This document shows positions 1,919-61,338 of a stretch of DNA of 64,000 bases, piece by piece. The DNA lies in the NCBI GenBank assembly GCA_963668695.2, contig CAXXLQ010000004.1, positions 224,001-288,000 of the forward strand. Reading direction: 5' to 3'. Made by a program: the position numbers and the translations under genes. The notes below the pieces were generated by a model. That model was not told where the DNA came from. It saw only the letters and a list, made by a program, of their open reading frames with translations, and made no database searches. Within the stretch, counting starts at the first letter, position 1. Each line of letters begins with the position of its first letter. The DNA is from Vicinamibacteria bacterium (lineage in GTDB: Bacteria > Acidobacteriota > Vicinamibacteria > Marinacidobacterales > Marinacidobacteraceae).

Positions 1919-3511
1919 TCAGTTCTCCGGGTTTTCCCGAACCGTCGGGTACTCGATACCGAGCTGTTCCAGGTAGCTGTCGTAGCGATCCGGGTCGTAG
2001 TAGAACGGCCGCATCGCCTCCCGGAAAGAGTTCATCCGATCCTTGTTCAGGTGAATCGCCGGAGGATCGTCCGGGCCGATCAGCGGGGTGTACTGGTGTT
2101 CCGCAGTCTGCTCGGCAAAGTACTCCTTGGCTGCCGTCACCAGCGACGGATCGAGGAGCAGGTCCATCAGCGTCATCGCGATGACCCGGGCGCCGGCGAG
2201 CACTCCCTTGTGCGCGATCGGGGTCGCCATCGCCACGGCGTTCGCCCAGTGGTGACCCGGGCCGCCCGGGATGTTCGACGGGTAGCCCAGGGTCACGGTC
2301 GGGACATTCCAGGAGATGTCGCCGATGTCGTCGGAGCCGCCGCCGAGCCGTGGCTCACGCGCCGGACCGCGTATCTCGCCGAGTTCGGTCGCGAGGCCCC
2401 GCTCCTCGACTCCCAACTCGCGTTGGAGGCCGTTGGCGAGCGCCTGGTCCGCGTCGCTCCACTCGGGAAGCCCCACTCGCTCGATGTTCGCCCACACCGC
2501 CTCGGCCACCGGTTTGTTGAAGTGGCGCGGATAGGCATGGCCCAGGATGCTCCATGAGGCCTCGGTGGAGGTCATCGCCGCCGCGGCATTGGCCATCGTG
2601 TTTCCGAGATCGAAGAGTTCCTTGATGTGGGGCTGGTCGAGTTCGCGGAAGAAGTACCAGACCGACGCGAGCTGCGGCACCACGTTCGGCTGGTCGCCAC
2701 CGTTCGTGATCACGTAGTGCGAGCGGTGCGGAAGGCGCAGGTGCTCGCGCTTGATGTTCCAGGCGGCGTTCATGATTTCGACGGCGTCAAGCGCGCTCCG
2801 GCCCCGCCAGGGCGCCCCCGCCGAGTGCGCCGACTCGCCCACGAACGTGTATTCCACCGACACCAGGCCGCTGCCGCCGCCCTGTCCCCAACTCACCCCG
2901 AACCGGGAGGAGACGTGGGTGAAGATGTTGATGTCCACGTCGTTGAAATAGCCGTCCCGGATGAACCAGGCCTTCGTGGCCAGCAGCTCCTCAGCCACCC
3001 CCGGCCAGATCACCAGAGTTCCGGGGATGCCCTCGCGTTCCATGATCTCCTTGGCCGCGAGCGCTCCCACGACGATCACGGCCTGCCCCGAGTTGTGGCC
3101 TTCGCCATGGCCCGGGGCGCCCTCGACCAGGGGATCGTGATACGCCACCCCGGGCTTCTGGGACGCCTTCGGAATGCCGTCGATGTCGCTGCCGAGCGCG
3201 ATGACGGGCGAACCCGACCCCCAGCGCGCCATCCAGGCGGAGGGGATGCCGGCGATCCCCTCCTCGATCTCGAACCCGTTCTCCCGCAGGATGTCGGTGA
3301 TGTAGCGCGAGGTCTCGAATTCCTGAAAGCCGAGTTCCCCGAAGCTGAAGATGGAGTCCACCATCACCTGGACCAGCTTGGCCCGCTCAGCAGCGCCCTG
3401 GTCGGCGACCGGCCGCAGGGTTTCAAGATCCTGCGCCGCGAGGGGCGCGGCGAGCAACACGGCGAGAAGGACGACCGGCAGGGACCGCAAGAGCTTGGTC
3501 AGGGTGCGCAT
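1919..3511 (-). CDS. Secreted M20-family amidohydrolase (AbgB-like), copy 2
   Basis: Same motifs as copy 1, colinear and highly similar; start MRTLTKLL at 3511 after GAGG. Confidence 0.88.
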   Translation of the reverse strand: MRTLTKLLRSLPVVLLAVLLAAPLAAQDLETLRPVADQGAAERAKLVQVMVDSIFSFGELGFQEFETSRYITDILRENGFEIEEGIAGIPSAWMARWGSGSPVIALGSDIDGIPKASQKPGVAYHDPLVEGAPGHGEGHNSGQAVIVVGALAAKEIMEREGIPGTLVIWPGVAEELLATKAWFIRDGYFNDVDINIFTHVSSRFGVSWGQGGGSGLVSVEYTFVGESAHSAGAPWRGRSALDAVEIMNAAWNIKREHLRLPHRSHYVITNGGDQPNVVPQLASVWYFFRELDQPHIKELFDLGNTMANAAAAMTSTEASWSILGHAYPRHFNKPVAEAVWANIERVGLPEWSDADQALANGLQRELGVEERGLATELGEIRGPAREPRLGGGSDDIGDISWNVPTVTLGYPSNIPGGPGHHWANAVAMATPIAHKGVLAGARVIAMTLMDLLLDPSLVTAAKEYFAEQTAEHQYTPLIGPDDPPAIHLNKDRMNSFREAMRPFYYDPDRYDSYLEQLGIEYPTVRENPEN

Positions 3512-3699
3512 GGAGGAACCTCTTTCGCGGCGGCGCGGCCCATCTCCGGCGCGCCGGGTGCGCGATTCTACCGGTGGGGGAGACGAATTCCGGTGATGAG
3601 GCACGCATTCACCCAGCGTTTCGCCCACCTCGGGTGGATGATGCGGCCGGAGGCTGGCCGGCTGCTAAGCTGCCGCCGCCAGGTGGCTACGGCGCCGCT

Positions 3700-3784
3700 G
3701 CGAAAGTGGCGGAACTGGCAGACGCGCTGGATTTAGGATCCAGTGGGGTAACCCGTGGGGGTTCGAGTCCCCCCTTTCGCACCA
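3700..3784 (+). tRNA. tRNA-Leu(TAG)
   Basis: GCGAAAG acceptor stem pairs with CTTTCGC, anticodon arm CTGGA-TTTAGGA-TCCAG, long variable arm, GGTTCGAGTCC T-loop, encoded ACCA. Confidence 0.96.
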
Positions 3785-3823
3785 GCGCGCCCCTCCCCAC
3801 CACCGAGTCTGAGTAGCGAGTTC

Positions 3824-5227
3824 GTGGACAACAGCACCCCTTTGGAACCCGAGAACGAACCCGCGGACCCGGGCGCTGCCGGCGCGTCCCCCCGCCCGCC
3901 CTTCCCGAAGAAGGACCGCATTCCGGACCTCGCCTTCCGGCTGACCGAAGAAGGCCAATCCCGCCGCGCGATCGAAGTGACAATTCCGGCTTCGGTCTTC
4001 GAGGAAGCGGTCCAGCAGGAACTGCGGCGTATTCGGCAGCGGGCTCATCTACGAGGCTTCCGCAAGGGGAAGGCGCCCAAGGAGCGAATCGAACTCCTGT
4101 ACGGGAGCGAGGCCACCGAAGAGGCCATGAGCCGCCTGCTCGCCCGGGCCACGCAGCAGAGTCTGCACGAGCTCGATGTCCATCCGCTGGATGTTCCGAA
4201 GGCAACCCCCGAGGAAGCGACGCGCGGCAAACCGCTTACCGCGCGGCTCCGCTTCAGCGTCTGGCCGGACATCGGAACGGTCGATTTCGAGGGAATCAAG
4301 GTCACCACCCGGGAACACTCGGTGACGGAATCCGACATCGGCGAGACTCTGGAACATCTGCGGATGGAGCGGGCGCAGCCGGGGCCGATCGAGGGGCGGG
4401 GCCTCCAGGACGGCGATTCCGTGATGGGTGATCTCCAGGAATCCGACCTTGTCGAGACGGATCGGCGGGCTACTCCACGCGTCACGAAGGATCTGCCCTT
4501 GCGGGTGGGGAGCGAGACCTATCACCCCGCACTCCACGAGGCCCTCCAGGGCGCCTCTGAAGGAGACACGGTGGTGGCAACGACCAGCTTCGGAAACGAG
4601 TCCCCCGATCCCGAACGGGCCGGGCGAACGATCCGGGCCGCCTTCACGGTCAAACAGGCACGGACTCCGGTGCTCCCCGCTCTCGACGATTCCTTCGCGC
4701 GGGAAGTCGGGGCGGCGTCGCTGCTGGCCCTTCGCGGCGACATCCGGGACCGGCTGCGGAAGCGGGCAGACCAGAGCGCACGGCGGGACGTCGCGGAGCA
4801 ACTCGTCGGAGCACTGCGCGAAAAGAACCCGGTGGAACCTCCGGAGCCGCTCGTCGAGAGGGATCTGGACAACCGCGTGAAACTGCTCGCAAACAGCATG
4901 ATCCAGGGTGGGATGCCCACCGAACAAGTGCGTTCCGAACTCGAAAAGCACCTCGACACGTTGCGCTCCGAGTGCGAAAAGACGGTCGCTTCAACGATCC
5001 TGGTGGACTCCTTGGCTAATCAACAAGGGATCGAGACGACGGAGGAGGCTCTCGAGGAGCGACTCGCAGAGGAAGCCTCAGCCTCCGGCAAGACCCCGGC
5101 TGCGCTTCGGGCCGCCATGGAAAAGGACGGCCAGCTGGAACGGATTCGCACCCAACTCCGCCGGGACGCCGCAATCGATTTCCTGCGAGAACACGCAGAG
5201 CTGACCCCGTCCCAGGAACAGGAATAG
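3824..5227 (+). CDS. tig: Trigger factor
   Basis: GFRKGKAP ribosome-binding motif; tRNA-Leu-tig-clpP synteny; start uncertain (GTG 3824 chosen because the longer ORF overlaps the tRNA). Confidence 0.88.
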
Positions 5228-5318
5228 GGGAGGATCAAGGGCGACGATTCCTGACCAAGCGAAGTCGTATGCTGACCGAAGCCTCCAGAACCCAGAATTA
5301 CCACGAGGGACGAACACC

Positions 5319-5912
5319 GTGATTCGAGACCAGATTCTCATTCCGCACGTAATCGAGCAGACCGGGCGTGGGGAACGCGCCTACGACATCTATTCCCGAC
5401 TGCTCAAGGACAACATCGTCTTTATCGGGCAAGAGATCAGCGATGGGCTCGCGAACACCGTGGTCGCCCAACTCCTGTTCCTGGAATCCGAAGACCCGGA
5501 AAAAGAAGTCTCGCTCTATATCAACTGCCCGGGTGGCTCCGTGAGCGCCGGCCTCGCGATCTACGACACACTGCAGTTCATTCGACCGGACGTGACCACC
5601 TATTGCCTGGGTCAGGCGTCCAGCATGGGAGCGATCCTGCTCGCCGCCGGGGCCCACGGAAAGCGATTCGCACTCCCGAACGCCACCGTCATGATCCACC
5701 AGCCACTCGGCGGCGCCCGGGGTCAAGCGACCGACATCCAGATCCAGGCCAACGAGATCATGCGGGTCCGCGCGCGCCTCACCGAAATCCTCGCCCACCA
5801 CACCGGCCGTTCGTCGGAAGAGATCGCGCGCGACATCGAACGGGACCGCTACATGACCGCGGAGGAAGCGAAGGCCTACGGGATCGTGGACTCCGTCATC
5901 GAGCACCGCTAG
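5319..5912 (+). CDS. clpP: ATP-dependent Clp protease proteolytic subunit
   Basis: [24 protein letters not shown] (catalytic Ser), MIHQP, ERDRYM. Confidence 0.97.
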
Positions 5913-6074
5913 CAGCGGCGGACTCGCTCGCCGGATGAATTCGGCACGGTCGCGGCTCGGCGGGAAGACCCGCCGGGTGGGGCCGCGGCCGCTTGCATCC
6001 TGACCCCAAAACGGGCACACTGGCTCGTCACACCGGCGCTGCTTCTGCGCCCGGATTCCGTCTGCGAATCGCCC

Positions 6075-8714
6075 ATGAAATCACAAACTGCCGTTAACAG
6101 CCTGTGGTGGAACCCGGGTGAGTGCCGAGAGCGGCGAGGCGCCCGGCTGACAAGGCGCGTGAGGGAGGAATACCGGGTGTATTTCGACCGAAACGCAACG
6201 CAGAACGGAGCGGAGCGGAGTGGTTCAGCCGGGATGGATCGCCGCTCGAGCCCCCACCGGGAGAACTGGGCCGCCTGGGTTTCACCACAGGCTGTTAAGA
6301 CGGGGCTCTCGCTCCTGCTCTTGGTGGCGGGCGCCGCTTTCGGGGCGGCGGCCGCGGGTTCTGCCGCTATCGCAGAGCCCCCGCGCGTGGCGGAAACCAC
6401 ACCATCCGACGCCGCGGCGAACCGCGTCGTGCGCAGCACCTGCGTCATGTGCCACAACGATCGGCTCCGGACCGGCAACCTGTCGCTCCAGGAGTTCGAC
6501 GTGACGAACGCGGCCGAGCACGCCGACGTCGCCGAGGAGATGGTCCGGAAGCTGCGGGCCGGCATGATGCCGCCGCCCGGCGCGCGCCGGACGGGCAGCG
6601 AGGCGCTCCTGACGCTGGTCGAGACCCTGGAACACCGTCTCGATGAGGCCGCCGCCCTGGCCCCCGACCCGGGCAACCGGCCCTTCCAGCGCCTCAACCG
6701 CTCGGAATACGAGAAGGCGATTCGCGACCTGCTCGGGCTCGAGGTGGACGCCGGAAACTGGCTGCCGCTCGATCCGGTGAGCCACAACTTCGACAACATC
6801 GCCGAGGCCCAGACACTTTCGGCCACGCTGCTCGAGGCCTACCTGAATGCGGCCAGCTCCATCAGCCGCCTCGCGGTCGGCCAGCGAAGCGGGAAGGCGG
6901 TGGATTCAACCTACACCAACTCGCAGTACCTGTCGCAGCATCCGTGGGACCATGTCGAGGGCGCTCCGTACGGCACCCGGGGCGGGCTGGTCGTGAACCA
7001 TGTGTTCCCGGCCGATGCCGAGTACACCTTCGGGGTGACGTTCACCTCCGGGGACAACACCCGCATCGAGGACATCGACGTCTCGATCGATGGTGAGCGG
7101 GTCGCGCTGCTGGCCTACGACACCAACCGCGTGACCGGTGCTGACGGTCGGGGAAGCGTGATCACCCTGACCCCGCGCGTCTCCGTCCGGGCCGGAGCGC
7201 GGCGCATCGCAGCCGCTTTCATCCGGCACCAGGATGGGCCCTACGAGGATCTGATCCGCCCCCACGACTGGTCGTACGCCGGAGGCGGCTCGGGCGGCGC
7301 GGGCATCACAACGCTCCCGCACGTCCGCGACGTCATCATTACCGGCCCCTACAACGCGACCGGCCTGTCGGATACGGCCAGCCGGCACCGCATCTTCACC
7401 TGCCGTCCGACCGCTGCCGACGAGGCGCGGCCCTGCGCCAGCCGGATTCTCGCCCGGCTGGGCCGCGAAGCCTACCGGCGGACCCTCGACGACCGCGAGG
7501 TCGAAGACCTGCTCGCTTTCTTCGAAGAGGGCGCCGACGACGGCGGCTTCGAGGTTGGAGTGCGAACGGCGCTCGAGGCGATGCTCGCGAGCCCGCATTT
7601 CGTGCTGCGGCTGGAACGGGAACCGCTGGACGCCCCGGAGCGGGGCTACCGGTTGAGTGACGTGGACATCGCCTCGCGGCTCTCGTTCTTCCTGTGGGGG
7701 ACGCCCCCGGATGACGAGCTCCAAGTGCTCGCGGACGAGGGCCTGTTGACGCCAGAGGAACTGGATCGGCAGGCGCTGCGCATGCTCGCCGATCCGCGCG
7801 CCGCGGCGCTCGGCCCCCGCTTCGCCGCGCAGTGGTTCCGGCTACAGGACATGGACAAGGTCCGGCCCGACCCGAACTTCTTCCCCAATTTCGACGAAAA
7901 CCTGGCGGAGGCGATGCGGAGCGAGACCGAGTTGTTCTTCGCCAACCTGGTCCAGGAAGACCGGAGCCTGTTTGACCTCTTCCAGGCCGACTACACGTTC
8001 GTCAACGAGCGGCTCGCGCGCCACTACGGCCTTCCGGGAGTGGCCGGACGGCACTTCCGGCGCGTCCGCTACCCCGACGATACCCGCCGCGGGATCCTCG
8101 GCCACGGCAGCGTGCTGGTGCTTACCTCGCTCGCCAACCGCACCTCACCGGTGCTGCGCGGCAAGTGGGTGATGGAGGTGCTGCTCGGCACTCCGCCGCC
8201 CCCACCGCCGCCCGACATCCCCGCGCTCGAGGACATCGAAGAAGTGAACGAGGGCCGGCGGCTCACCACCCGCGAGCGGATGGAGATGCACGCCGCCAAC
8301 CCGAGTTGCAACTCCTGTCACCGGCTGATCGATCCGATCGGGCTCGCCCTCGACAACTTCGACGTGACAGGCAAATGGCGCCTACGCGAGAACGGCGGCC
8401 CACTGGATACGCTCGGCGACTTTTACGACGGCACGCCGGTTTCCTCGCCAAGCGAGTTGGTGGACGCCCTGCTGGTGCGGCCCATTCCGCTGGCGCGCAC
8501 TTTCACGGAAAACCTGTTGGCCTTCGCGGTCGGCCGGCCGATCGAAGCGTTTGATCAGCCGACCATCCGCAACATCGTTCGAGAGGCCGAGGCGAACGAT
8601 TCCCGCATGGCGTCGTTCATCATGGGCGTCGTCCGAAGCGACGCCTTCCAGCGCAAACGGTCGACCGAACGCGCAAGCCAGACAACAGCAGCACCAGAGA
8701 GCAGCAGCAACTGA
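6075..8714 (+). CDS. DUF1592/DUF1588-type (PSD/PSCyt) c-type heme protein carrying a 67-codon in-frame repeat insertion near the N-terminus
   Basis: CVMCH and CNSCH heme motifs, RLNRSEY, ASRLSFFLW, RTSPVLRGKW, PPPPP, G.ALDNFD; followed by DUF1552 gene. Confidence 0.85.
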   Translation: MKSQTAVNSLWWNPGECRERRGARLTRRVREEYRVYFDRNATQNGAERSGSAGMDRRSSPHRENWAAWVSPQAVKTGLSLLLLVAGAAFGAAAAGSAAIAEPPRVAETTPSDAAANRVVRSTCVMCHNDRLRTGNLSLQEFDVTNAAEHADVAEEMVRKLRAGMMPPPGARRTGSEALLTLVETLEHRLDEAAALAPDPGNRPFQRLNRSEYEKAIRDLLGLEVDAGNWLPLDPVSHNFDNIAEAQTLSATLLEAYLNAASSISRLAVGQRSGKAVDSTYTNSQYLSQHPWDHVEGAPYGTRGGLVVNHVFPADAEYTFGVTFTSGDNTRIEDIDVSIDGERVALLAYDTNRVTGADGRGSVITLTPRVSVRAGARRIAAAFIRHQDGPYEDLIRPHDWSYAGGGSGGAGITTLPHVRDVIITGPYNATGLSDTASRHRIFTCRPTAADEARPCASRILARLGREAYRRTLDDREVEDLLAFFEEGADDGGFEVGVRTALEAMLASPHFVLRLEREPLDAPERGYRLSDVDIASRLSFFLWGTPPDDELQVLADEGLLTPEELDRQALRMLADPRAAALGPRFAAQWFRLQDMDKVRPDPNFFPNFDENLAEAMRSETELFFANLVQEDRSLFDLFQADYTFVNERLARHYGLPGVAGRHFRRVRYPDDTRRGILGHGSVLVLTSLANRTSPVLRGKWVMEVLLGTPPPPPPPDIPALEDIEEVNEGRRLTTRERMEMHAANPSCNSCHRLIDPIGLALDNFDVTGKWRLRENGGPLDTLGDFYDGTPVSSPSELVDALLVRPIPLARTFTENLLAFAVGRPIEAFDQPTIRNIVREAEANDSRMASFIMGVVRSDAFQRKRSTERASQTTAAPESSSN
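6098..6294. mobile_element. MITE-like element, type A, in frame inside the DUF1592 gene
   Basis: TIRs CAGCCTGTGGTGGAACCC / GGGTTTCACCACAGGCTG flanked by TTAA at 6094 and 6295. Confidence 0.88.
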
Positions 8715-8724
8715 GGAGTAGATC

Positions 8725-10140
8725 ATGTCCCTGATTACCGGAAAGCACCTGCCCCGCCGGACCTTCCTGCGTGGCGTGGGGGCCTCTGTCGCCCTCCCGT
8801 TCCTGGATGCAATGGCGCCGGCCGGCCGCTCGGGCCGCAACGTCGCGTCAGCGGCGGAGGCCAAGGACGTGACCCGCCTCGTCTGCATCGAGGAGGTGCA
8901 CGGGCTGCCCGGCTGCAACAAGTGGGGCGCCAGCCGTCACCTGTTCGCGCCGGCCACGGAGGGTCGCGACTTCGAGCTGCTACCCGAGAACGCCTTGAAG
9001 CCTCTGGAGCCGTTCCAGGACTACCTGACGATCGTCAGCAACACCGATGTCAGGATGGCCGAGGCGTTCACCGGGCCGGAGATCGGCGGGGACCACTTCC
9101 GGTCCTCCGCAGTCTTCCTGACCCAGTCCCACCCGAAGCAGACACAGGGTTCCGACATCTGGTGCGGCACTTCGCTCGACCAGCTCTACGCGCAGCGGTT
9201 TGGCCAGGCCACGCCGATGCCGTCGCTACAGCTCTGCATCGAGAACCTGGATCAGGCCGGCGGCTGCACCTACAACTACTCCTGCGCCTATACCGACTCG
9301 ATCAGCTGGGCGTCGCCGAACGACCCCCTGCCGATGATCCGCGACCCGCGCATTGCCTTCGAGATGCTCTTCGGGGCGGGCAGCAGTCCGGAGGAGCGCG
9401 CCGAGCGCCGGGCTACCCGCCGCAGCATCCTCGACTGGATCCTCAGCGACGTGGCCGAGGTCCGAAACGAACTCGGCAATCTGGACCGCCTCCGGATGGA
9501 TCGCTATCTCGACCACGTCCGCGAGGTCGAACGGCGCATCCAGATGGTCGAGGGCCACAACGAGAGCGGGGAGGCGCGGGATCTGCCTGACGCCCCACCC
9601 GGCGTGCCGGACTCGTTCTCCGAGCACATGCGGCTCATGTTCGATCTCCAGGTACTGGCGCTGGAGACCGATATGACCCGGGTGGTCGCGTTCAAGACGG
9701 GGCGCGATGCCCAGAACCGCTCGTTCCCGGACAGCGGCACGAACTCACCCTTCCATCCCGCCTCGCACCACGGAAACAACGAAGAGCGGATCATGGACTT
9801 CAATTCGATCTGCCAGTACCGCGTGGGCCAGCTCCCCTACTTCCTCGAGCAGCTCAAGAACACCACGGAAGGCGGCGTCTCCCTGCTCGACAAGACCGCG
9901 ATCATCTGGGGCTCGCCGATGGCCGACTCCAACATCCACAACCACCGGCGCGCGCCGCTGATCTTCTTGGGCCGGGCCAACGGGCATCTCACCGGAAACC
10001 TTCACGTGAAGGCGCCGGACGAGACGCCGATGGCCAACGCGATGCTCGCGCTTATGCAGTCGCTGGGCCTCGAGACGGATTCCTTCGGCGACAGCAACGG
10101 CATCCTTCCGGTGTCGGCGTCGCCGCTGGACACCGATTAG
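8725..10140 (+). CDS. DUF1552 (HXXSHH) domain protein
   Basis: LPRRTFLRG Tat-like N-terminus, YSCAY, HPASHH motif; typical partner of DUF1592 proteins; RBS GAGGAG. Confidence 0.88.
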   Translation: MSLITGKHLPRRTFLRGVGASVALPFLDAMAPAGRSGRNVASAAEAKDVTRLVCIEEVHGLPGCNKWGASRHLFAPATEGRDFELLPENALKPLEPFQDYLTIVSNTDVRMAEAFTGPEIGGDHFRSSAVFLTQSHPKQTQGSDIWCGTSLDQLYAQRFGQATPMPSLQLCIENLDQAGGCTYNYSCAYTDSISWASPNDPLPMIRDPRIAFEMLFGAGSSPEERAERRATRRSILDWILSDVAEVRNELGNLDRLRMDRYLDHVREVERRIQMVEGHNESGEARDLPDAPPGVPDSFSEHMRLMFDLQVLALETDMTRVVAFKTGRDAQNRSFPDSGTNSPFHPASHHGNNEERIMDFNSICQYRVGQLPYFLEQLKNTTEGGVSLLDKTAIIWGSPMADSNIHNHRRAPLIFLGRANGHLTGNLHVKAPDETPMANAMLALMQSLGLETDSFGDSNGILPVSASPLDTD

Positions 10141-10172
10141 CCGTCCGGGGCTCGCGGACAGGGGGAAAACCA

Positions 10173-12035
10173 GTGCGCCTGAAAGGAACTTCAAGTCGTC
10201 TCTGCGCCGTCGCCGCGGCGCTGCTGATCGCCGGCGGCGCGATTTCGGCTCCGCCCGTGGCGGCGCCGGTCGCCGACGCCGCGCGCCTCGGCGACCTCGC
10301 TGCGGTACGGGCCCTGCTTGCCCAGGGTGAGGACGCCAACGCCGCGCACGGAGACGGCATGTCGGCCCTGCACTGGGCCGCCGAGCGGGGTGACACGGAA
10401 CTCGTCGAAACGCTCCTGCAGGGCGGCGCCAGCGTGGACGCGGTAACCCGCATCGGGAACTACGCGCCGCTGCACGTGGCGAGCGCCGCCGGCCAGGCGG
10501 AGGTCGTCGAATTGCTGCTTCGAGCGGGATCCGACGCGACCAGCGCCACGAGCACGAGCGGAGCGACGCCGCTGCACCTTGCCGCCAATTCCGGGAGCGT
10601 CGCGACGATCACCGCACTGATCGACCACGGGGCCGCGGTGGACGCGCCGGAGAAGACGTGGGGGCACACGCCGCTGATCTTCGCGGCGGCGCGCAACCGC
10701 GTGGATGCGATCCGTGCGCTGCTGGAGCGCGGGGCAGACCCGGCGGCCACTGCAAAGAAGGTGGACCTGTTGGCCGATTACAAGTTGGCCGAGGCGGCCA
10801 AGAAGCGGCAACAGGCCGTGCTGGAGGCGTTCGCCGTGGGGGACGCCGAGCCGACTTCCAGCCAGGTGCAGGCCGCGGTGCTCGCGGCCCGTGATCTCTA
10901 CCTTGCCGGGGAGGCCCCCGAAGATGAGAGCGAGGACGACGATCCGTTTGCCCGCTTCCGCCGGCCGCAACTGGAGGCCAAGGGCGGCATGACGGCTCTG
11001 CTGCATGCGGCTCGGCAGGGGTACCACGACGCCGCGACGGCGCTCCTCGACGGCGACGCCGACATCAATCAGGTCTCGGAAGGGGACGGCACCAGCCCGC
11101 TGCTGATGGCCACGATCAATGGGCAGTTCGATCTGGCGCTCCAGCTCCTCGAGCGCGGCGCCGATCCCAATATCGCGGACCACACGAATGGGGTGACCCC
11201 GCTATGGGCCGCCGTCAACGCCGAGTGGCAGCCTCGCACCCGGTTTCCGCAACCGCAGGAACACGGTTTCCAGAAGGCGAACTATCTGGACGTGATGCGA
11301 GCGCTACTCGATGCCGGCGCGGATCCGAATGTCCGAATCAAGAAGCATCCCTGGTACATGGTCTATAGCGGCTGCGGCAACGCCAACTGCGGGCTCGTGA
11401 ACACCGCGGGCGCGACCGCGTTCTGGCGGGCCGCCTATGCGACCGACGTGCCGGCGATGCGCCTGCTCGCGGAACACGGCGCCGATCCGAACATCCCTAC
11501 CACGGCGCCGGAGCCGCGTCGGAGGCGGGGCGGTACGACGGCCGTAAACGACGAAAAAAAGGGTTCGCTCTCGGCCCTGCCCGCCGCGCCCGGCCTGTGG
11601 ATCCCGACCGACTTGACCTCCATGGGACCCGACCCATCCGGCCTGCCGCCGTACAAGGCCGGGGATCCGGGGGTTTATCCGATCCACGCCGCCTCGGGGG
11701 TTGGCTACGGCGAGGGCTTCGCGGGGAATGCGCATCGTCACGTAAAGGACGCCTGGCTGGCGTCAGTCCAGTACCTGGTCGAACTGGGCGCCGACATCAA
11801 ACAGCGGGACTTCAAGGGCTACAACGCTCTCCACCACGCGGCCGCCCGCGGCGACAACGACCTGATCCTCTATCTGGTCGAGAATGGAGGAGATGTCACC
11901 GCCGTGAGCCGGCTCGGCCAGACGACGGCTGACATGGCGAATGGTCCGGTACAGCGGGTCTCGCCGATTCCCGCGACCGTGGCGCTGCTGGAGAGCCTGG
12001 GCTCGAAGAACAACCACAACTGCGTCTCTTGCTAA
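10173..12035 (+). CDS. Secreted ankyrin-repeat protein
   Basis: Multiple G.TPLH.AA ankyrin repeats, signal peptide, C-terminal CVSC. Confidence 0.88.
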   Translation: MRLKGTSSRLCAVAAALLIAGGAISAPPVAAPVADAARLGDLAAVRALLAQGEDANAAHGDGMSALHWAAERGDTELVETLLQGGASVDAVTRIGNYAPLHVASAAGQAEVVELLLRAGSDATSATSTSGATPLHLAANSGSVATITALIDHGAAVDAPEKTWGHTPLIFAAARNRVDAIRALLERGADPAATAKKVDLLADYKLAEAAKKRQQAVLEAFAVGDAEPTSSQVQAAVLAARDLYLAGEAPEDESEDDDPFARFRRPQLEAKGGMTALLHAARQGYHDAATALLDGDADINQVSEGDGTSPLLMATINGQFDLALQLLERGADPNIADHTNGVTPLWAAVNAEWQPRTRFPQPQEHGFQKANYLDVMRALLDAGADPNVRIKKHPWYMVYSGCGNANCGLVNTAGATAFWRAAYATDVPAMRLLAEHGADPNIPTTAPEPRRRRGGTTAVNDEKKGSLSALPAAPGLWIPTDLTSMGPDPSGLPPYKAGDPGVYPIHAASGVGYGEGFAGNAHRHVKDAWLASVQYLVELGADIKQRDFKGYNALHHAAARGDNDLILYLVENGGDVTAVSRLGQTTADMANGPVQRVSPIPATVALLESLGSKNNHNCVSC

Positions 12036-12805
12036 GCACGTTCAAGGCAAGGCGCTGGGCGCCGGCCGCGCTTGTGCTGGCCGGCGCCCTTCCGGCGGCG
12101 GCCCCGGCGCAGGATGCGCCGGAAGCGGCACCGTGGACGGAAATGACCCTCGTCGGGGTGGCACCCGGCCAAGTGGACGAGTTCCTGGCGGCGCAGCGCG
12201 AGCTGTCGGCCCTCGAAAAAGCGGCGGACGTGCCCTGGCGCAGCGTCAGCCGGACCGCGGCGTTTGGCGACACCTACCGCTTTGTGATCATGACGCCGCT
12301 CGCCAACTTCGCCCGGCTCGATCAGCCCGAGCGCCCCGATCCTGCGCGCGCGAGCATCGAGAATCGCATCCAGCGCACCGTGACCAGCTACCGGACCTAC
12401 GCGCTGCGGACGACGCCCGACCTCGACAATCCGCTCCCTGACGACGAGGACCCCGCCCTGACGCTCGTCCAGTTGATCACCGTCGTTCCCGGACGCGAAC
12501 AGGACTACATTCGGGTCATGGCCGAGGACGTGCTGCCGCACTTCAAGGAAGCGGAGATGCACCACTCCTCCGGCGCCCTGACTTTCGGCGGTGACAGTGG
12601 GTATGTCCACTTCTTCCACGTCGGGAACTTCGCCGCGCTCGACCAGGGTTCGCCGCTGGCCCGCGCCCTTGGTGCGGAGGGCGCGCTGAAGATCACTTCG
12701 AAGCTCGCGGGCGTCCTGTCGCGTACGGAGCAGTGGCTCGTCCGGTACCTTCCGGACACCAGCTTCCGGCCGGAAGCGGAATCAAAAGCCGAGAACCGAG
12801 ACTGA
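12029..12805 (+). CDS. Secreted hypothetical protein with two similar halves (possibly dimeric alpha/beta barrel-like)
   Basis: Signal peptide ending APA-QD; repeated V.PG...(E/D) and (F/G)NFA.LDQ motifs; TTG overlaps the ankyrin stop. Confidence 0.6.
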   Translation: MLSTFKARRWAPAALVLAGALPAAAPAQDAPEAAPWTEMTLVGVAPGQVDEFLAAQRELSALEKAADVPWRSVSRTAAFGDTYRFVIMTPLANFARLDQPERPDPARASIENRIQRTVTSYRTYALRTTPDLDNPLPDDEDPALTLVQLITVVPGREQDYIRVMAEDVLPHFKEAEMHHSSGALTFGGDSGYVHFFHVGNFAALDQGSPLARALGAEGALKITSKLAGVLSRTEQWLVRYLPDTSFRPEAESKAENRD

Positions 12806-14227: not shown

Positions 14228-14358
14228 GCTCGACCGAAGCGCAACAACGAGCGACGCAAAGCGCCAGTTCTCCCGGTGGGGGGGCGGTTCAGCCGGGATG
14301 GATCGCCGGTCGAGCCCCCACCGGGAGAACTGGGCCGCGTGACTTCATCTACCGGCTG
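14228..14358. mobile_element. Left-truncated type A MITE-like element
   Basis: Internal type A modules and right end CTACCGGCTG; flanked by CTAAG on both sides (the left copy contains the clpX stop); left TIR absent. Confidence 0.75.
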
Positions 14359-14395
14359 CTAAGTCCGTCCGGACCCTTCCTGCCACTTCTCATCC

Positions 14396-16411: not shown

Positions 16412-16951
16412 CAGCCCGTGGACAACGTGGTGTGAGCGCCGAGAGCGGCCAGTCCTCCCGGTGGGGGCGAGGCGCCCGGCTGACAAGGCGCGCGAGGGAG
16501 GAGCCCCCACCGGGAGAACTGGCCCGGGTGTATTGCGACCGAAACGCAACGATGAGCGGCGCGCAGCGACGCGGTTCAGCCGGTGGTGGAACCCACGTGA
16601 GCGCCGAGGCCGGCGAGGCCCAGTTCTCCCGGTGGGGCCAGTTCTCCCGGTGGGGGCCCGGCTGACAAGGCGCGTGAGGGAGGAGCCCCCACCGGGAGAA
16701 CTGGCCCGGGTGTATTGCGACCGAAACGCAACGATGAGCGGCGCGCAGCGACGCGGTTCAGCCGGGATGGATCGCCGGCCGAGCCCCCACCGGGAGAACT
16801 GGGCCGCGCGGGTTTCATCACCGGCTGTTTGGCCGGGATGGATCGCCGGCCGAACGCCGCGTCGGTTTCATCAGCGGTTGTTTGGCCGGGATGCATCGCC
16901 GCTCGAGCCCCCACCGGGAGAACTGGGCCGCACAACTTTGTTCACCGGCTG
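16412..16951. mobile_element. Composite/nested type A MITE-like element
   Basis: Outer ends CAGCCCGTGGACAAC / TTTGTTCACCGGCTG, internal TIR copies, duplicated modules, several CCCACCGGGAGAACTGG motifs. Confidence 0.85.
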
Positions 16952-17210: not shown

Positions 17211-17397
17211 CAATCCCCCATTCGGGGCCGAGCCATCACAAAGCCTCCATGCGGGGGTCTGGACGTTCGGTTGCGGAATCGACCCCGGTTCAAAGGCGCG
17301 CCCGCTACCATGACGCGTAGCCCGTTCGGGGATCCCGAGTAGCGTCGCGGGGGCATCCCGAGTCCCAACCAACCGGAGCCTCCCAAGAAGAAACGCC

Positions 17398-18513
17398 ATG
17401 ACCAGGAAGACCGCGACCGGAACCGGAACCGTCGGCGCGGGGATCGAAGCCGCGCTCGCCGCCGCCAGAGAGCGGTACCAGGAGGTAACCGAGCGGCTCG
17501 CAAACCCCGCGGTCCTCGCGGATCCGGCAGAGCTCAGACGTCTCTCCACCGTTCATTCCGAACTCGAGCCACTCATCGAGGCCGGGAGCCGTCACCGGGA
17601 ACTCGGCGAGCAGCTCGAAGAAGCGCTCGAGATGGAGCGAGACCCCGATCCGGAAATGGCGGAGTTCGCAGCCGGAGAAGCCACGGAGACCCGCGCCAAA
17701 CTGGATCGGGTCGCCGACGAGATTCGGCGCCGGCTGCTTCCGAAAGATCCGAACGACGACCGCAACGTGTTGCTCGAAGTGCGGGCCGGCACCGGCGGCG
17801 AGGAGGCGGCTCTATTCGCCCGCGAGGTCTTCCGGATGTACGAGCAGTACGCAAGGTCCAACGGGTTCCGGGTGGACGTGGTATCCAGTCAGGAATCCCC
17901 AGTGGGGGGCATCAAGGAAATCGTCTCGGTCATCGAGGGAAAGGGCGCTTTCAGCCGGCTCAAGTTCGAAAGCGGCGTGCACCGGGTGCAGCGGGTGCCG
18001 GCTACCGAAGCGTCGGGGCGGATTCACACCTCCGCGGTCACCGTAGCCGTGCTCCCGGAGGCGGAAGACGTGGAGATTCAGATCGATCCCAAGGATCTCC
18101 GGGTGGACACTTTCTGCTCTTCCGGCCCCGGCGGTCAGAGCGTGAACACCACCTACTCCGCGGTGCGCATCACCCACCTCCCCTCCGGTCTCGTGGTCAG
18201 TTGCCAGGACGAAAAGTCCCAGATCAAGAACAAGGCGAAGGCGCTGAGGGTGCTGAAATCCCGGCTGCTCGAACTGGCGCGCCAGGAGCAGCAGGACCAG
18301 GTTGCCGAGGCGCGGCGCGGACAGATAGGCCGCGGTGACCGGAGCGAGAAGATCCGAACCTACAACTTCAAGGAAAACCGGATCACCGACCACCGGATCG
18401 CGCTCACCCTGCATTCCCTCCCGAACGTTCTGAGAGGAGAGCTCGATCCCCTGATCGAGCCGCTCCACGCCCGCGAACAGGCGGACCGTCTAAAGGCGCT
18501 GAACGGCCCGTGA
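17398..18513 (+). CDS. prfA: Peptide chain release factor 1
   Basis: GTGGEEA, GVHRVQRVPAT (PxT), GGQ, RSEKIRTYN; the stop codon lies inside the repeat end. Confidence 0.96.
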   Translation: MTRKTATGTGTVGAGIEAALAAARERYQEVTERLANPAVLADPAELRRLSTVHSELEPLIEAGSRHRELGEQLEEALEMERDPDPEMAEFAAGEATETRAKLDRVADEIRRRLLPKDPNDDRNVLLEVRAGTGGEEAALFAREVFRMYEQYARSNGFRVDVVSSQESPVGGIKEIVSVIEGKGAFSRLKFESGVHRVQRVPATEASGRIHTSAVTVAVLPEAEDVEIQIDPKDLRVDTFCSSGPGGQSVNTTYSAVRITHLPSGLVVSCQDEKSQIKNKAKALRVLKSRLLELARQEQQDQVAEARRGQIGRGDRSEKIRTYNFKENRITDHRIALTLHSLPNVLRGELDPLIEPLHAREQADRLKALNGP

Positions 18514-19046
18514 CCAAAGTCACGCGGCCCAGTTCTCCCGGTGGGGGCTCGAGCGGCGATGCATCCCAGCCAAACAGCCTGTGATGAAACCCGCGCGGCG
18601 TTCGGCCGGCGATCCATCCCGGCCAAACAACCGGTGATGAAACCCACGCGGCCCAGTTCTCCCGGTGGGGGCTCGGCCGGCGATCCATCCCGGCTGAACC
18701 GCGTCGCTTCGCGCCGCTCATCGTTGCGCTTCGGTCGCAATACACCCGGGCCAGTTCTCCCGGTGGGGGCTCCTCCCTCACGCGCCTTGTCAGCCGGACC
18801 CCCACCGGGAGAACTGGGCCTCGCCCCCACCGGGAGGACTGGCCGCTCTCGGCGCTCACGTGGGTTCCACCACCGGCTGTTCACCGCGCCGCTTCGCGCC
18901 GCTCATCGTTGCGCTTCGGTCGCAATACACCCTGTATTCCTCCCTCACGCGCCTTGTCAGCCGGACCCCCACCGGGAGAACTGGGCCTCGCCCCCACCGG
19001 GAGGACTGGCCGCTCTCGGCGCTCATGTCACTGTGCCCGCGGGCCG
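18504..19046. mobile_element. Composite type A MITE-like element (opposite orientation to 16412-16951)
   Basis: Ends ACGGCCCGTGACCAAA / TGTGCCCGCGGGCCGT; reverse complement of the same modules. Confidence 0.85.
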
Positions 19047-31266: not shown

Positions 31267-32295
31267 ATGGGGACACCGGTTCGCGTCCGATTGGATCTCG
31301 CGTACGACGGGACGGACTTCGCCGGCTGGCAGCACCAACCGGACCGGGACACCATACAACGCCGGATCGAGGCAGCGGCACGCCGACTCTACCGGCTGGC
31401 TCCGGACGAAAGGACACCCGTGGTCGGTGCGGGGAGGACTGACGCGGGAGTCCATGCCGAGCGACAGGTAGCCCACTTCGACGCCCCTTTGGTGATTCCG
31501 CCGGCCGGGATTCGGGCGGGTTTGAATGGCCTGCTCCCGGACTCGATTCGAGTCCTCGCCGCCGCCGAGACGGCACCGGACTTCCACGCCCGGTTCGATG
31601 CAACGGGCAAGACCTATCGATATCACCTGCTCACCGAACCGGTGGTCACTCCGCTTCAGACCCGGTACGCCTGGCCCGTGGGTGACAGGCTCTCCCGGGA
31701 GGCCATGGAAGAGGCCGCCGCCGCCTTGGTGGGCCGCCACGACTTCCGGGCGTTTTTCACCGCTCCACCCGGGGAAGAGCCACGGACTCCAGTTCGGAAC
31801 ATCTTCACGGCGCGCTTTGACCAAAGAGAGAACATGCTGGTCTTCGAGGTCGCAGCGGACGGATTCCTGCGCTACATGGTTCGCCGGATGGTCGGAACCC
31901 TGGTGGCGGTCGGGCGGGGGCAGCTTCCTCCGGATCGGGTGGGTGCGTTACTCCGCGACCCGGAGCTGCCGGGCCCCCGGTTCCGGGCGCCCGCCGCCGG
32001 GCTCCGGCTCTACCGGGTTCACTACGACGGCGGCTCCTTAGCAGCCTGTGGTGGAACTCTGAAGGCATCCATTCGCGGCGCGCAACGCCGCGGGGGTGGG
32101 GTGTGGGGAGGGGTTTCCCCTCCCCACGAAAGACGGTGGAGTGAATCGCGCAGCGATTCGCACCGCCAACCTGTGGGGAAAGCGCCCTGCACGCACACAA
32201 ACCGCCAGATTCGGCGCGCGGGACGTCCCGGGGCTCGTGCGGGGTGCTTTCACCACAGGCTGTTGGGCAAGCGCCACTCGCAACGCGCGGGCTGA
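31267..32295 (+). CDS. truA: tRNA pseudouridine(38-40) synthase with a repeat-derived C-terminal insertion
   Basis: AYDGTDFAGWQ, AGRTDAGVHA, FHARF, G.HDF.AF, GFLRYMVR, APAAGL. Confidence 0.95.
   Translation: MGTPVRVRLDLAYDGTDFAGWQHQPDRDTIQRRIEAAARRLYRLAPDERTPVVGAGRTDAGVHAERQVAHFDAPLVIPPAGIRAGLNGLLPDSIRVLAAAETAPDFHARFDATGKTYRYHLLTEPVVTPLQTRYAWPVGDRLSREAMEEAAAALVGRHDFRAFFTAPPGEEPRTPVRNIFTARFDQRENMLVFEVAADGFLRYMVRRMVGTLVAVGRGQLPPDRVGALLRDPELPGPRFRAPAAGLRLYRVHYDGGSLAACGGTLKASIRGAQRRGGGVWGGVSPPHERRWSESRSDSHRQPVGKAPCTHTNRQIRRAGRPGARAGCFHHRLLGKRHSQRAG
32042..32262. mobile_element. Type B MITE-like element in frame in truA
   Basis: CAGCCTGTGGTGGAA / TTTCACCACAGGCTG; flanks TTAG/TTGG 225 bp apart. 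Confidence 0.85.
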
Positions 32296-32348: not shown

Positions 32349-32757
32349 CAGCCGGTGGACAAAGTGAGGTGAGCGCCGCAAGTGGCCAGTGCTTCCGATG
32401 CGTGAGGGAGGAATACCGGGTGTATTTCGACCGAAACGCAACGATGAGCGGCGCGCAGCGACGCGGTGAACAGCCGGGATGGATCGCCGGCCGTTTCCGG
32501 AGCGGGGCGCAAGCACCGCGGAGACCCCGGAGCGGAAGGGACGGGGGGCGGGACCACCCGACCCCCATCCCTTCTTGGCTCGGGAACGCCGTGTGGGTTT
32601 CATTACCGGCTGTTTTGGCAGGGATGCATCGACGCTCGTTTCCGGAGCGGGGCGCAAGCACCGCGGAGACCCCGGAGCAGAAGGGACGGGGGGCGGGGGC
32701 TACCCGACCCCCATCCCTTCTGGCTCGGGAACGCCGCGTGACTTTGTCCACAGGCTG
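32349..32757. mobile_element. Composite type A element carrying two copies of an extra ~95-bp module
   Basis: CAGCCGGTGGACAAAGT / ACTTTGTCCACAGGCTG; duplicated TTTCCGGAGCGGGGCGCAAGCACCGCGGAGACCCCGG...CTCGGGAACGCCG. Confidence 0.85.
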
Positions 32758-40633: not shown

Positions 40634-41524
40634 GTGGACGACGTTACGCGCCCCGGTTCTACCGGTGGCGGCTCGACCGGGGGCAACGCAGCCAGCTCAG
40701 CGCCCCGTTTCGGACTCCTTGCCGTTGACCTCGACGGTACCCTGCTGAACTCGCAGAAGGAGATCTCCGAACCTGACCGGGCGGCGCTCGCCCGCGCGGA
40801 ACAAGCGGGCGTGGTGGTCGCATTTATCTCAGGCCGGCGCTACGCGGAACTGGAAGTCCTGACTGCGACCCTTTCCGGGGCTGCCTTCCGGGTGGGGCAC
40901 GGAGGCGCGTTGATCCGGCGGTTCCACCAGACCATTGCGGAGATCCCCCTCCCGAAAGCGGCAGCGGAGCGAGCGGTCCGAACTGCGCTGCGCCTGGAAA
41001 TTCCTGCCCTGATCAGCGAGCGCGACGGCACCGTGCGGATCACGGCCCATTCGCCTGCAACGCCCCGGGTCACCCGTTACCTCAGAACCGTCCGCCCAAC
41101 GCCACGCTTCGACCCCGCTCCGACGTTTTCGGAGGATCCCCTGCACCTCGTGCTCGCCGGCACCCCCGAGGCCTGCCGCGAAGCCGAGCGGGACCTTTTG
41201 GAATCGCTTGGTGATTCGGTCAACCTCGAGCGCACCGAATACGCCGCCACCCGTCTCGGTCTGCTGGACGTTCTGGCAAGCACGGCGAACAAGGGAACCG
41301 CACTGAAACGGGTCGCCCGGGAAGCCGGTTTTCCGCTCAGCGCTACGCTCGCGATCGGAGACAACTGGAACGATCTGGAAATGCTCGAAGCCGCGGGGAT
41401 GGGGGTTCTCATGGAAAACGCCGAACCGGAGTTGAAGGCTCGAGGCTTCGAGATCACCTCGTCAAACGACGCGCACGGGGTGGCCGCCGCGATCGACCGG
41501 CTACTCCTGAACAGCCCGTGCTGA
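40634..41524 (+). CDS. Cof-type HAD-IIB hydrolase
   Basis: DLDGTLL, SGR, KG.AL, GDNWNDLEM, GVA.AI; stop supplied by the repeat. Confidence 0.9.
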   Translation: MDDVTRPGSTGGGSTGGNAASSAPRFGLLAVDLDGTLLNSQKEISEPDRAALARAEQAGVVVAFISGRRYAELEVLTATLSGAAFRVGHGGALIRRFHQTIAEIPLPKAAAERAVRTALRLEIPALISERDGTVRITAHSPATPRVTRYLRTVRPTPRFDPAPTFSEDPLHLVLAGTPEACREAERDLLESLGDSVNLERTEYAATRLGLLDVLASTANKGTALKRVAREAGFPLSATLAIGDNWNDLEMLEAAGMGVLMENAEPELKARGFEITSSNDAHGVAAAIDRLLLNSPC

Positions 41525-41762
41525 AACCCATGCGGCCCAGTTCTCCCGGTGGGGGCTCGAGCGGCGATCCATTCCGGCTGAAACCCTCCGCTTCGCATCG
41601 TTCGTCGTTGCGCTTCGGTCGAAATACACTCGGGCCAGTTCTCCCGGTGGGGGCTCCTCCCTCGCGCGTCTTGTCAGCCGGGCCCCCACCGGGAGAACTG
41701 GCCCCACCGGGAGAACTGGGCCTCGCCGCTCTCGGCGCTCACCCGGGTTCCACCACGGGCTG
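41512..41762. mobile_element. Type A MITE-like element
   Basis: ACAGCCCGTGCTGAAACCC / GGGTTCCACCACGGGCTGT with type A internal modules. Confidence 0.87.
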
Positions 41763-41769
41763 TTGACCG

Positions 41770-46656: not shown

Positions 46657-46833
46657 CCGGGTTTCCGGAGCGGTGCTTGCGCCCCGCTCCGGAAACGACC
46701 GGCGATGCAGCCCGGCTGAACCGCCCCCCCCAACCGGAGAATTGGCGCTCCGCGCTGCGCTTCGGTCCAAATACACCAAGGCCAGTTCTGCCGGTGGGGG
46801 TTTCGGCGCTCACGCCACTCTATCCACAGGCCG
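46657..46833. repeat. Degenerate type A element (left boundary uncertain)
   Basis: Reverse complement of modules seen at 32490-32520, GCCAGTTCTGCCGGTGGGGG, end TATCCACAGGCCG + CTAG. Confidence 0.65.
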
Positions 46834-51722: not shown

Positions 51723-51815
51723 GACTCCAATCCGGGAACGAATGTCAAGGAGGCCGGCAGCCGCCGCAGATTTGGCGAAATCTCTCCAACCCAGTTGAGG
51801 CGGTTGCGCCGTTAG

Positions 51816-52030
51816 CAGCCTGTGAACAAAGTCATATGGCCCAGTTCTCCCGGTGGGGGCTCGAGTGGCGATGCATCCCGGCTGGTACCCACCTCGAGAA
51901 CTGGCCGCCCCGCTCCGCGTTGCTCATCGTTGCGCTGCGGTCGAAATACACCGGGTATTTCTCCCTCGCGCGCCTTGTCAGCCGGGCGCCTTACCACTCT
52001 CGGCACTAACGCCACTTTGTCCACCGGCTG
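51816..52030. mobile_element. Type A MITE-like element upstream of rel
   Basis: CAGCCTGTGAACAAAGT / ACTTTGTCCACCGGCTG; flanks TTAG/CTAG. Confidence 0.85.
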
Positions 52031-52059
52031 CTAGGGTAAATTGGGAGATAGGGCCAACG

Positions 52060-61007: not shown

Positions 61008-61027
61008 TCCGGGCGCAAGGAGACGAA

Positions 61028-61331
61028 CAGCCGGTGGTGGAACCCAGGCGGCGTTCGAGCGGCGATGCATCCCGGCCAGACAGCCGGTAGTGAAACCCAC
61101 GCGGCCCAGTTCTCCCGGTGGGGGCTCGGCCGGCGATCCATCCCGGCTGAACCGCGTCGCTGCGCGCCGCTCATCGTTGCGTTTCGGTCGGAATACACCC
61201 GGGCCAGTTCTCCCGGTGGGGGCTCCTCCCTCACGCGCCTTGTCAGCCGGGCCCCCACCGGGAGGACTGGCCCCACCGGGAGAACTGGGCCTCGCCGCTC
61301 TCGGCGCTCACCCGGGTTCCACCACCGGCTG
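61028..61331. mobile_element. Type A MITE-like element
   Basis: Perfect ACAGCCGGTGGTGGAACCC / GGGTTCCACCACCGGCTGT; absent from the paralogous site at 58388. Confidence 0.9.
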
Positions 61332-61338
61332 TTAAGGA

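Follow-up and report, generated by a model that had tools for sequence, protein, structure and literature searches.

The question raised by this locus is what a 201-bp stretch is doing inside the part of a gene that encodes the signal peptide of an exported protein, and what its presence means for the start, the export and the survival of that protein. The locus lies in a stretch of 64,000 nucleotides (66.5% G+C) from a Vicinamibacteria bacterium (GenBank assembly GCA_963668695.2, contig CAXXLQ010000004.1, positions 224,001 to 288,000 of the forward strand), hereafter called the window and numbered from its first letter; the host clade is one of marine, apparently host-associated Vicinamibacteria. 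The gene concerned (6075-8714, + strand) encodes an exported protein of the DUF1592 family, and we propose, with a probability of about 0.8 for the explanation as a whole, that a MITE (miniature inverted-repeat transposable element) inserted in frame into its signal peptide and has been tolerated there.

A 197-bp MITE and its empty alleles

The coding sequence, delimited with the help of the list of open reading frames (ORFs), a Pfam scan and 120 listed orthologues, comprises 879 codons from an ancestral ATG (6075-6077, +), whose context ATGAAATCACAAACTGCC is identical in the window and in three related genomes (L004, L001 and L005), and it crosses the insert without a stop codon. The scan of the host protein returned five Pfam domains (PF07631, PF07627, PF07626, PF07624 and PF07637, named PSD4/DUF1592, PSCyt3/DUF1588, PSD3/DUF1587, PSD2/DUF1585 and PSD5/DUF1595, respectively), and its translation contains a CxxCH motif of the heme-binding type (CVMCH, 6441-6455, +), which was found in 120 of the 120 orthologues listed. 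Judged by this set of domains, the product is a periplasmic protein of the DUF1592/PSCyt type with an N-terminal CxxCH, through which it may bind heme. What remains of the signal peptide downstream of the insert (KTGLSLLLLVAGAAFGAAAAGSAAIA, 6297-6374, +) was read from the translation by eye; it has the layout K...LSLLLLVAGAAFGAAAAG...AIA followed by EPP, with n-, h- and c-regions and an A-x-A motif, AIA, behind which signal peptidase I would be likely to cut, and the N-termini of the orthologues are comparable. The insertion point falls between codons 7 and 8, and by this layout the insert would sit in the positively charged n-region of a Sec (type I) signal peptide.

The initial annotation had pointed to two TTAA copies at 6094 and 6295, separated by 201 bp (67 codons) without a stop, and the sequence, the inverted repeats and the reading frame all confirm this. 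The two copies of the target-site duplication (TSD; left 6094-6097, right 6295-6298, both TTAA and unstranded) are supported by the sequence, by an inverted-repeat search and by the alignment with relatives. They enclose a body of 197 bp (6098-6294, +), which is delimited by the gap in the alignment with L001 and L005, by the family copies described below and by its hairpin fold; together with one TSD copy it makes up the added 201 bp. Terminal inverted repeats (TIRs) of ~21 nt were detected by the inverted-repeat search at 6098-6118 (+; CAGCCTGTGGTGGAACCCGGG, the same ends being present on other copies) and at 6274-6294 (+), and with the TSD included the two arms (6094-6118 and 6274-6298, 25 nt each) are 92% complementary. 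The RNA fold of the element is a single long hairpin of -118.5 kcal/mol (shuffle mean -84.5, z = -7.67), a stability reached by none of the 200 shuffles. The junction codons are in frame (GTT AAC ... GTT AAG). Two of the six frames of the element are free of stops and 762 of 5000 mononucleotide shuffles (15%) stay open as well, so that an open frame is unremarkable for this element.

A protein search listed 120 orthologues, from metagenome-assembled genomes (MAGs) labelled Vicinamibacterales or Acidobacteria where named, and only one of them, P0001, which is the protein of L004, carries the inserted peptide. The insert-free orthologues begin MKSQTAV... or MKTQTAL..., and the N-termini of the first 60 listed are ordinary signal peptides (for example P0005, MKTQTALALKGGFCFLVL...). 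A genome scan yielded 76 related loci, the nearest of which belong to MAGs named Candidatus Marinacidobacterium sp. L004, which shares 95% identity with the window along 14.25 kb, contains this element at the identical position, and the two copies differ once in 201 bp (GAT to CAT). The sister genomes L001 and L005 possess the exact empty site and read ATGAAATCACAAACTGCC followed directly by GTYAGGACGGGG, the element being absent from junctions at which ATGAAATCACAAACTGCC is continued by GTCAGG or GTTAGG (L001, L005); the proteins of these empty alleles start MKSQTAVRTGLSALLF... (MKSQTAVRTGLS...). The empty allele, for which an alignment of orthologues had been proposed, is thus found in two genomes, and the healed sequence that the initial annotation obtained by removing the insert is essentially a real sister allele: the L001 and L005 alleles differ from it only by Lys to Arg at the junction. 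Since both TSD copies read TTAA, the recipient lineage must have had AAG at this junction. The orthologous loci exclude the possibility that the 201 bp are ancestral and were lost elsewhere.

Over the segment 3500-6999, 84 of 105 informative sites unite the window with L004. Along with a TSD, an insertion site and an orientation that are identical in the two, this speaks for a single insertion that was shared by descent at this locus: it occurred once, in the common ancestor of the window genome and L004 at the locus, the sisters having stayed empty.

The ancestry of the four closest genomes is a mosaic on the kb scale, which rules out a simple species tree for them. L004 clusters with the window over 3500-6999 and 11000-11499 and with L005 over 8000-10999 (21 of 24 sites of the 10500 bin alone unite the latter two), and over 6406-12774 the p-distance of L004 to L005 is 0.034 versus 0.050 to the window. 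Such a mosaic among the window, L001, L004 and L005 indicates frequent homologous recombination among these MAG "species".

The initial annotation had supposed a protein-inserting element, and this idea is borne out by the TIRs, the TSD, the multiple copies, the empty sites in the sister genomes and the single filled gene among the 120 orthologues listed; an element devoid of other copies is excluded, as other copies were found. With its small size, TIRs, TSD, dispersed copies and filled and empty sites, the element is a MITE. It inserted into a TTAA of the DUF1592-family gene and duplicated it, and the reading frame is kept because 67 whole codons were added in one of the two stop-free frames of the element.

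Start of translation and state of the gene

By its sequence the gene appears to be functional still. Both filled genomes keep an ORF that runs uninterrupted from the ancestral ATG (879 and 880 aa), and dN/dS for the filled pair, the window versus L004, is 0.20 (dS 0.18), which matches the values of 0.17-0.22 for the other five pairs, each of which includes at least one empty allele; this suggests continued purifying selection and argues against a pseudogene. The mature protein is probably unchanged by the insert, because the added residues, whether translation starts at the ancestral ATG or within the element, lie ahead of the hydrophobic core and would be lost together with the signal peptide. 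Signal peptidase would remove everything upstream of that core, the mature protein would remain the same and the insertion would be tolerated; tolerance through signal cleavage fits the unchanged dN/dS.

As to the start codon, we somewhat favour translation from ATG 6075 through the whole element, which would give an n-region 67 residues longer and rich in Arg. The Arg-rich character claimed by the initial annotation stands (13 Arg among 67 residues by a hand count on the translation), whereas the claimed extension by 67 residues applies only if the ancestral ATG is used. No Shine-Dalgarno (SD)-like motif precedes ATG 6075 in either the filled or the empty alleles. In a partition-function fold of 5990-6450, the mean probability of being unpaired over positions -15 to +12 is 0.51 for ATG 6075, 0.37 for the in-frame GTG within the element (6177-6179, +; from the sequence, the translation and database gene calls) and 0.24 for the in-frame ATG within it (6234-6236, +; from the sequence and translation, conserved in L004), and the start region of the empty allele (L005) scores 0.44. 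The ancestral start is thus predicted to be about as accessible as in the empty allele and the internal starts less so, which is why read-through from ATG 6075 is favoured over an internal start. The only in-frame starts 3' of the element are TTG 6321 and GTG 6324, and a start there appears unlikely, because it would remove the n-region and part of the h-region.

A start inside the MITE, at GTG 6177 or ATG 6234, is a tentative alternative with a real though lesser chance of being correct; the 5' leader would then comprise the ancestral ATG plus the left half of the MITE, and the n-region would grow by ~41 or ~22 residues. The element supplies a GGAGG, a SD-like sequence (6164-6168, +), 8 nt before GTG 6177, and SD-like motifs also precede several other genes of the window (e.g. 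those at 8725, 48867, 49683, 56026 and 63428). GTG 6177 itself lies at the apical loop of the minimum-free-energy fold, with a probability of 0.62 for the codon to be unpaired. Gene calls point the same way: the deposited P0001 is an 846-aa protein called from the GTG of the element (MYFDRNAT...), although the same gene gives 879/880 aa from the ancestral ATG, and P0224, P0234 and many other database proteins are likewise called from the equivalent GTG. However, the SD zone is embedded in the hairpin of -118 kcal/mol and has the lower accessibilities quoted above, both filled genomes preserve the ancestral ATG with its context and an open frame from it, and gene calls are predictions only.

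These gene calls are one of several points that weigh against the explanation preferred here. Counted from the A of ATG 6075, the stable hairpin sets in after 19 nt and could hinder initiation or elongation from this codon, and the accessibility figures come from a thermodynamic model only. With 1 base differing between the window and L004 in the element, selection on the inserted codons is unmeasurable. The window and the 76 loci were searched for an autonomous parent insertion sequence (IS), with two family ends spaced 0.7-2.5 kb and a transposase between them, and yielded none. Finally, most database proteins that carry the element peptide have either no Pfam domain or a tandem peptide and may be gene-calling artefacts.

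That the element is kept because it performs a function we regard as unlikely. The Arg-rich n-region might alter targeting or export kinetics, or the 5' hairpin might regulate the stability or translation of the mRNA; extended signal peptides do alter targeting and export kinetics, and Correia and ERIC elements regulate via RNase III or RNase E. A start followed by the MITE peptide and then by a hydrophobic stretch is also seen in the N-terminal signal regions of P0151 (a solute-binding lipoprotein), P0179 (a TonB-dependent receptor), P0171 (an ankyrin-repeat protein, from a cluster of 89), P0224 and P0188, which would agree with a function. However, such placement is expected from tolerance and from gene callers that extend ORFs into upstream copies, most copies are intergenic, and P0151 is the one other carrier that was compared with an empty allele. 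The single difference between the window and L004 in the 201 bp contrasts with 5 and 11 differences in the adjoining 100-bp bins, yet 9.06% of 14,011 201-nt windows are equally conserved between the two genomes; the excess conservation is therefore not significant and we read no selection into it. Regulation by MITE RNA is mentioned among the known or proposed roles of these elements in a 2024 review (PMC10969869).

It is very unlikely that the insertion crippled export or expression and that the gene is becoming a pseudogene with a frame left open by chance. Open frames are indeed not rare in such a sequence, as seen from the element frames and the shuffles, and an n-region of 67 residues is unusual in a Sec substrate, as is a strong 5' hairpin; against this stand the same dN/dS in the filled pair as in the others, the intact ORF in both filled genomes and the intact DUF1552 gene downstream. 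Removal of the hairpin from the mRNA in the manner of an intron, which the initial annotation had suggested checking, or its skipping by the ribosome, has practically no chance of being correct, since the strong hairpin alone speaks for it, whereas Rfam gave no match over 6000-6400 at E up to 1 (which rules out an intron or a known RNA family) and none at the gathering threshold in the whole window save a tRNA at 3700-3781, the TIRs, the TSD and a site that is filled in some genomes and empty in others are marks of a DNA transposon, and the open frame makes removal unneeded.

The MITE family in the window and in predicted proteins

The gene is followed by a partner of the DUF1552 family (HXXSHH; 8725-10140, +; PF07586), DUF1552 genes being the usual partners of DUF1592 genes. 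According to Pfam, the upstream neighbours are the genes for trigger factor and clpP, and clpX, rho and a release factor gene lie further downstream; with such neighbours, the insertion locus is part of the core chromosome and not of an island.

A 12-nt motif from the element ends, searched with up to 2 mismatches, matches the window 23 times versus 4.98 expected, a number reached in none of 100 shuffles, and BLAST searches with the element and a longer copy as queries revealed ~10 copies or fragments of the family in the 64 kb. Apart from 6094-6298 these are a partial copy after clpX (14263-14362), two clusters of copies whose ends are duplicated, one between rho and prf (16445-16931) and one after prf (18502-19025), all three unstranded, the copies at 32400-32640, 40646-40680 and 46696-46815, a full-length copy between a HAD hydrolase gene and tgt (41510-41764, -), a copy with TTAG/CTAG flanks upstream of relA/spoT (51812-52033, -) and a copy with a duplicated left end between the genes for a TonB-dependent receptor and a peptidase S9 (61024-61337, -). 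The other copies are 200-315 bp long and contain no transposase ORF, which fits the size of MITEs (~100-400 bp). By the ORF map and Pfam all of them are intergenic, leaving 1 of ~10 within a gene. A second in-frame insertion at 51812-52033 was considered and ruled out, as relA/spoT starts at 52060-52061, downstream of this copy, and the longer ORF from 51853 is merely the open frame of the copy. Among the 76 related loci, 6 contain family matches.

The clusters at 16445-16931 and 18502-19025 flank the gene 17314-18513 in inverted orientation, each with a duplicated terminal segment of ~53 bp, and this arrangement is partly kept in L001, L004 and L005. The enclosed gene is not a transposase: Pfam identifies it as a housekeeping peptide-chain release factor. 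The end-motif search also revealed an unstranded element at 32042-32262 with the ends of the family and an unrelated interior, which contains the palindrome GGGGTGTGGGGAGGGGTTTCCCCTCCCCAC; this may be another MITE, moved by the transposase that also moves the family.

The element also contains, at 6253-6269 (+), a copy of a 17-nt module (CCCACCGGGAGAACTGG), which a module search located at 28 sites in the window with up to 2 mismatches (22 of them exact), with 0 expected (e.g. within 16620-16654, 41685-41719 and 61254-61288). By position every site falls within a family copy, in both orientations and with up to ~5 sites per copy. The module is much better conserved than the rest of the element (70-90% identity between copies), and its presence or absence explains length variants, such as the 18 bp by which the copy at 6094 exceeds that at L001:7375. 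The module might serve as a recognition site or represent a mini-repeat nested in the element.

The element duplicates a 4-bp target centred on TA. This follows from two further pairs of filled and empty sites, a copy at L001:7375 flanked by CTAG...CTAA where the window has a single CTAA, and a copy at L004:20598 flanked by CTAG...CTAG where the window has GTAG, and from the flanks alone of the copies at L001:16568 (GTAC/GTAC) and at 51812 of the window (TTAG/CTAG); the flanks of older window copies have decayed. The target of IS5-group elements is YTAR, and of the observed TSDs (TTAA, CTAG, CTAA, TTAG and GTAC) GTAC does not strictly conform to it. A blastn search of a plasmid collection in distant mode returned no match. 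Around the copy with CTAG/CTAA flanks, L001 (6200-7560, versus 3454-3662 of the window) has ~1.3 kb of extra sequence between the upstream gene and the tRNA, in which two small ORFs precede the MITE; to judge from the sequence, they may encode an antitoxin of the AbrB/SpoVT type and a toxin with a PIN domain.

Comparison of the 67-aa peptide, in the same frame, with longer proteins (250 candidates) identified it, at E up to 0.001, in no fewer than 149 proteins predicted from related MAGs. Its position was mapped in 120 of the matching proteins, in which it is N-terminal (30), C-terminal (25), internal (30) or present more than once in tandem (35). Pfam domains are real in 16 of 22 scanned carriers, which were picked mostly for having precomputed Pfam domains. 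P0135 is an APH-type kinase with an internal insert and host sequence on either side, P0144 has an internal insert after its own signal peptide, and P0156 is a membrane protein whose internal insert is spanned by a weak match to LPG_synthase_TM (E 6.3e-06, 26.3 bits, below the cutoff of 33.4). In-frame insertion thus recurs in unrelated conserved protein genes, in the manner of the Rickettsia palindromic elements (RPEs), and the comparison with these elements made in the initial annotation holds as an analogy, the same-frame peptide having host sequence on both sides in some of the carriers. The family is abundant in this marine clade of Vicinamibacteria, mostly intergenic, and repeatedly occurs in in-frame fusions with predicted proteins, other signal peptides included.

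In P0151 the peptide lies inside a lipoprotein-type signal, and P0241, a 351-aa protein with 94% identity, is insert-free (MNRAPRPRRGVNSLRLALILAGGLPIGC); more distant orthologues of P0151 have plain lipoprotein signals. Alignment of P0151, P0240 and P0241 places GV-NS-LRLAL of P0241 opposite GV-[NSLWW...QAV]-KRLRLAL of the filled form, and NS(L) corresponds to the first codons of the MITE. P0241 therefore looks like the product of a microhomology deletion with a 2-codon footprint rather than a never-occupied site.

Many database "proteins" of ~180-270 aa, P0121-P0125 among them, consist of two or three tandem MITE peptides, and to judge from their composition they are annotation artefacts of the open frames of the element. 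The open frame of the reverse orientation is found in 174 representative proteins; Pfam domains occur in 3 of the 21 longest, with the peptide after the domains, which lends genuine reverse-orientation insertions little support.

Relation to known elements and meaning of the insertion

In-frame fusions by intragenic MITEs are described as "not unusual" in the 2024 review, with RPEs as the extreme case (PMC10969869), and fusable ORFs are attributed to ERIC, YPAL, Correia-107 and RPEs (Delihas 2007, PMC2229807). The present element resembles RPEs, which are described as small palindromes with a long hairpin and a stop-free frame that occur in frame within conserved protein genes whose function is retained (PMC10969869, PMC2229807). 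It differs in its host, which belongs to an unrelated phylum and has 66% GC, in its 4-bp TA-centred TSD and TIRs of ~21 nt, and in its distribution, since 19 RPE-1 copies are reported in ORFs (PMC2229807) versus 1 of ~10 copies within a gene in the window. ERIC (IRU) and YPAL (RU-2) are similar in being MITEs with contiguous ORFs and in-frame fusions (PMC2229807).

For the Yersinia locus YPO1552 an exported protein is described, with a signal peptide that a MITE forms in part (PMC2229807). There the MITE contributes to a new signal peptide for a putative new protein, whereas the present element interrupts the n-region of an existing conserved signal and leaves the hydrophobic core and the cleavage site host-encoded. 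QMITE1 and QMITE2 of Coxiella burnetii add residues to genes by in-frame internal insertions and C-terminal extensions (PMC5896051), but they have direct repeats of 7-9 bp according to a figure legend (PMC10969869) versus 4 bp here, and no case within a signal peptide was found in the main text of PMC5896051, in which the word "signal" is absent. The Correia/NEMIS elements of Neisseria are also bounded by TIRs, are ~100-150 bp long and give hairpin transcripts, and one of their size classes is open and fused to ORFs (PMC2229807). Unlike the present element, they duplicate TA and carry motifs for integration host factor and promoters; a scan of 5850-6450 found neither a sigma-70-like promoter nor a terminator.

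The IS5 family shares with the present element the 4-bp duplication of a TA-centred target, but the window and the 76 loci yielded neither a transposase gene nor a longer element with the ends of the family. In the open-access literature our searches turned up nothing about this MITE family or about MITEs of Acidobacteria associated with sponges or the sea, nothing under "Marinacidobacterium", and, for MITEs combined with in-frame insertion in a signal peptide, no precedent closer than RPE, ERIC, YPAL and QMITE.

We speculate, as an idea slightly more doubtful than a function of the element at this locus, that the family could be a portable N-terminal module, an open Arg-rich frame with its own SD sequence and GTG/ATG starts, kept by selection in exported proteins. 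If so, the element would retune the initiation of translation or the export kinetics of secreted proteins, the 17-nt module would be a recognition site for a protein or an RNA, and selection would explain the signal-peptide cases (the DUF1592 heme-type protein, the solute-binding lipoprotein, the TonB-dependent receptor and the secreted ankyrin-repeat protein).

As in-frame MITE fusions have already been described in RPE, ERIC, YPAL and QMITE, the finding is incremental for transposon biology. What appears to be new is a MITE family member that lies in frame within a signal peptide, accompanied by empty alleles in nature and by evidence suggestive of continued purifying selection. For annotation, the locus illustrates that gene callers are inconsistent at such sites (879 versus 846 aa for the same gene) and produce spurious ORFs on MITE arrays. 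The filled and empty alleles of one signal peptide in close relatives constitute a clean natural experiment, which would mean that the n-region of a Sec signal can accommodate a highly charged extension of 67 residues, or else a new start, under continued purifying selection, and which would extend selfish DNA of the RPE type in protein genes to a GC-rich, uncultured acidobacterial lineage.

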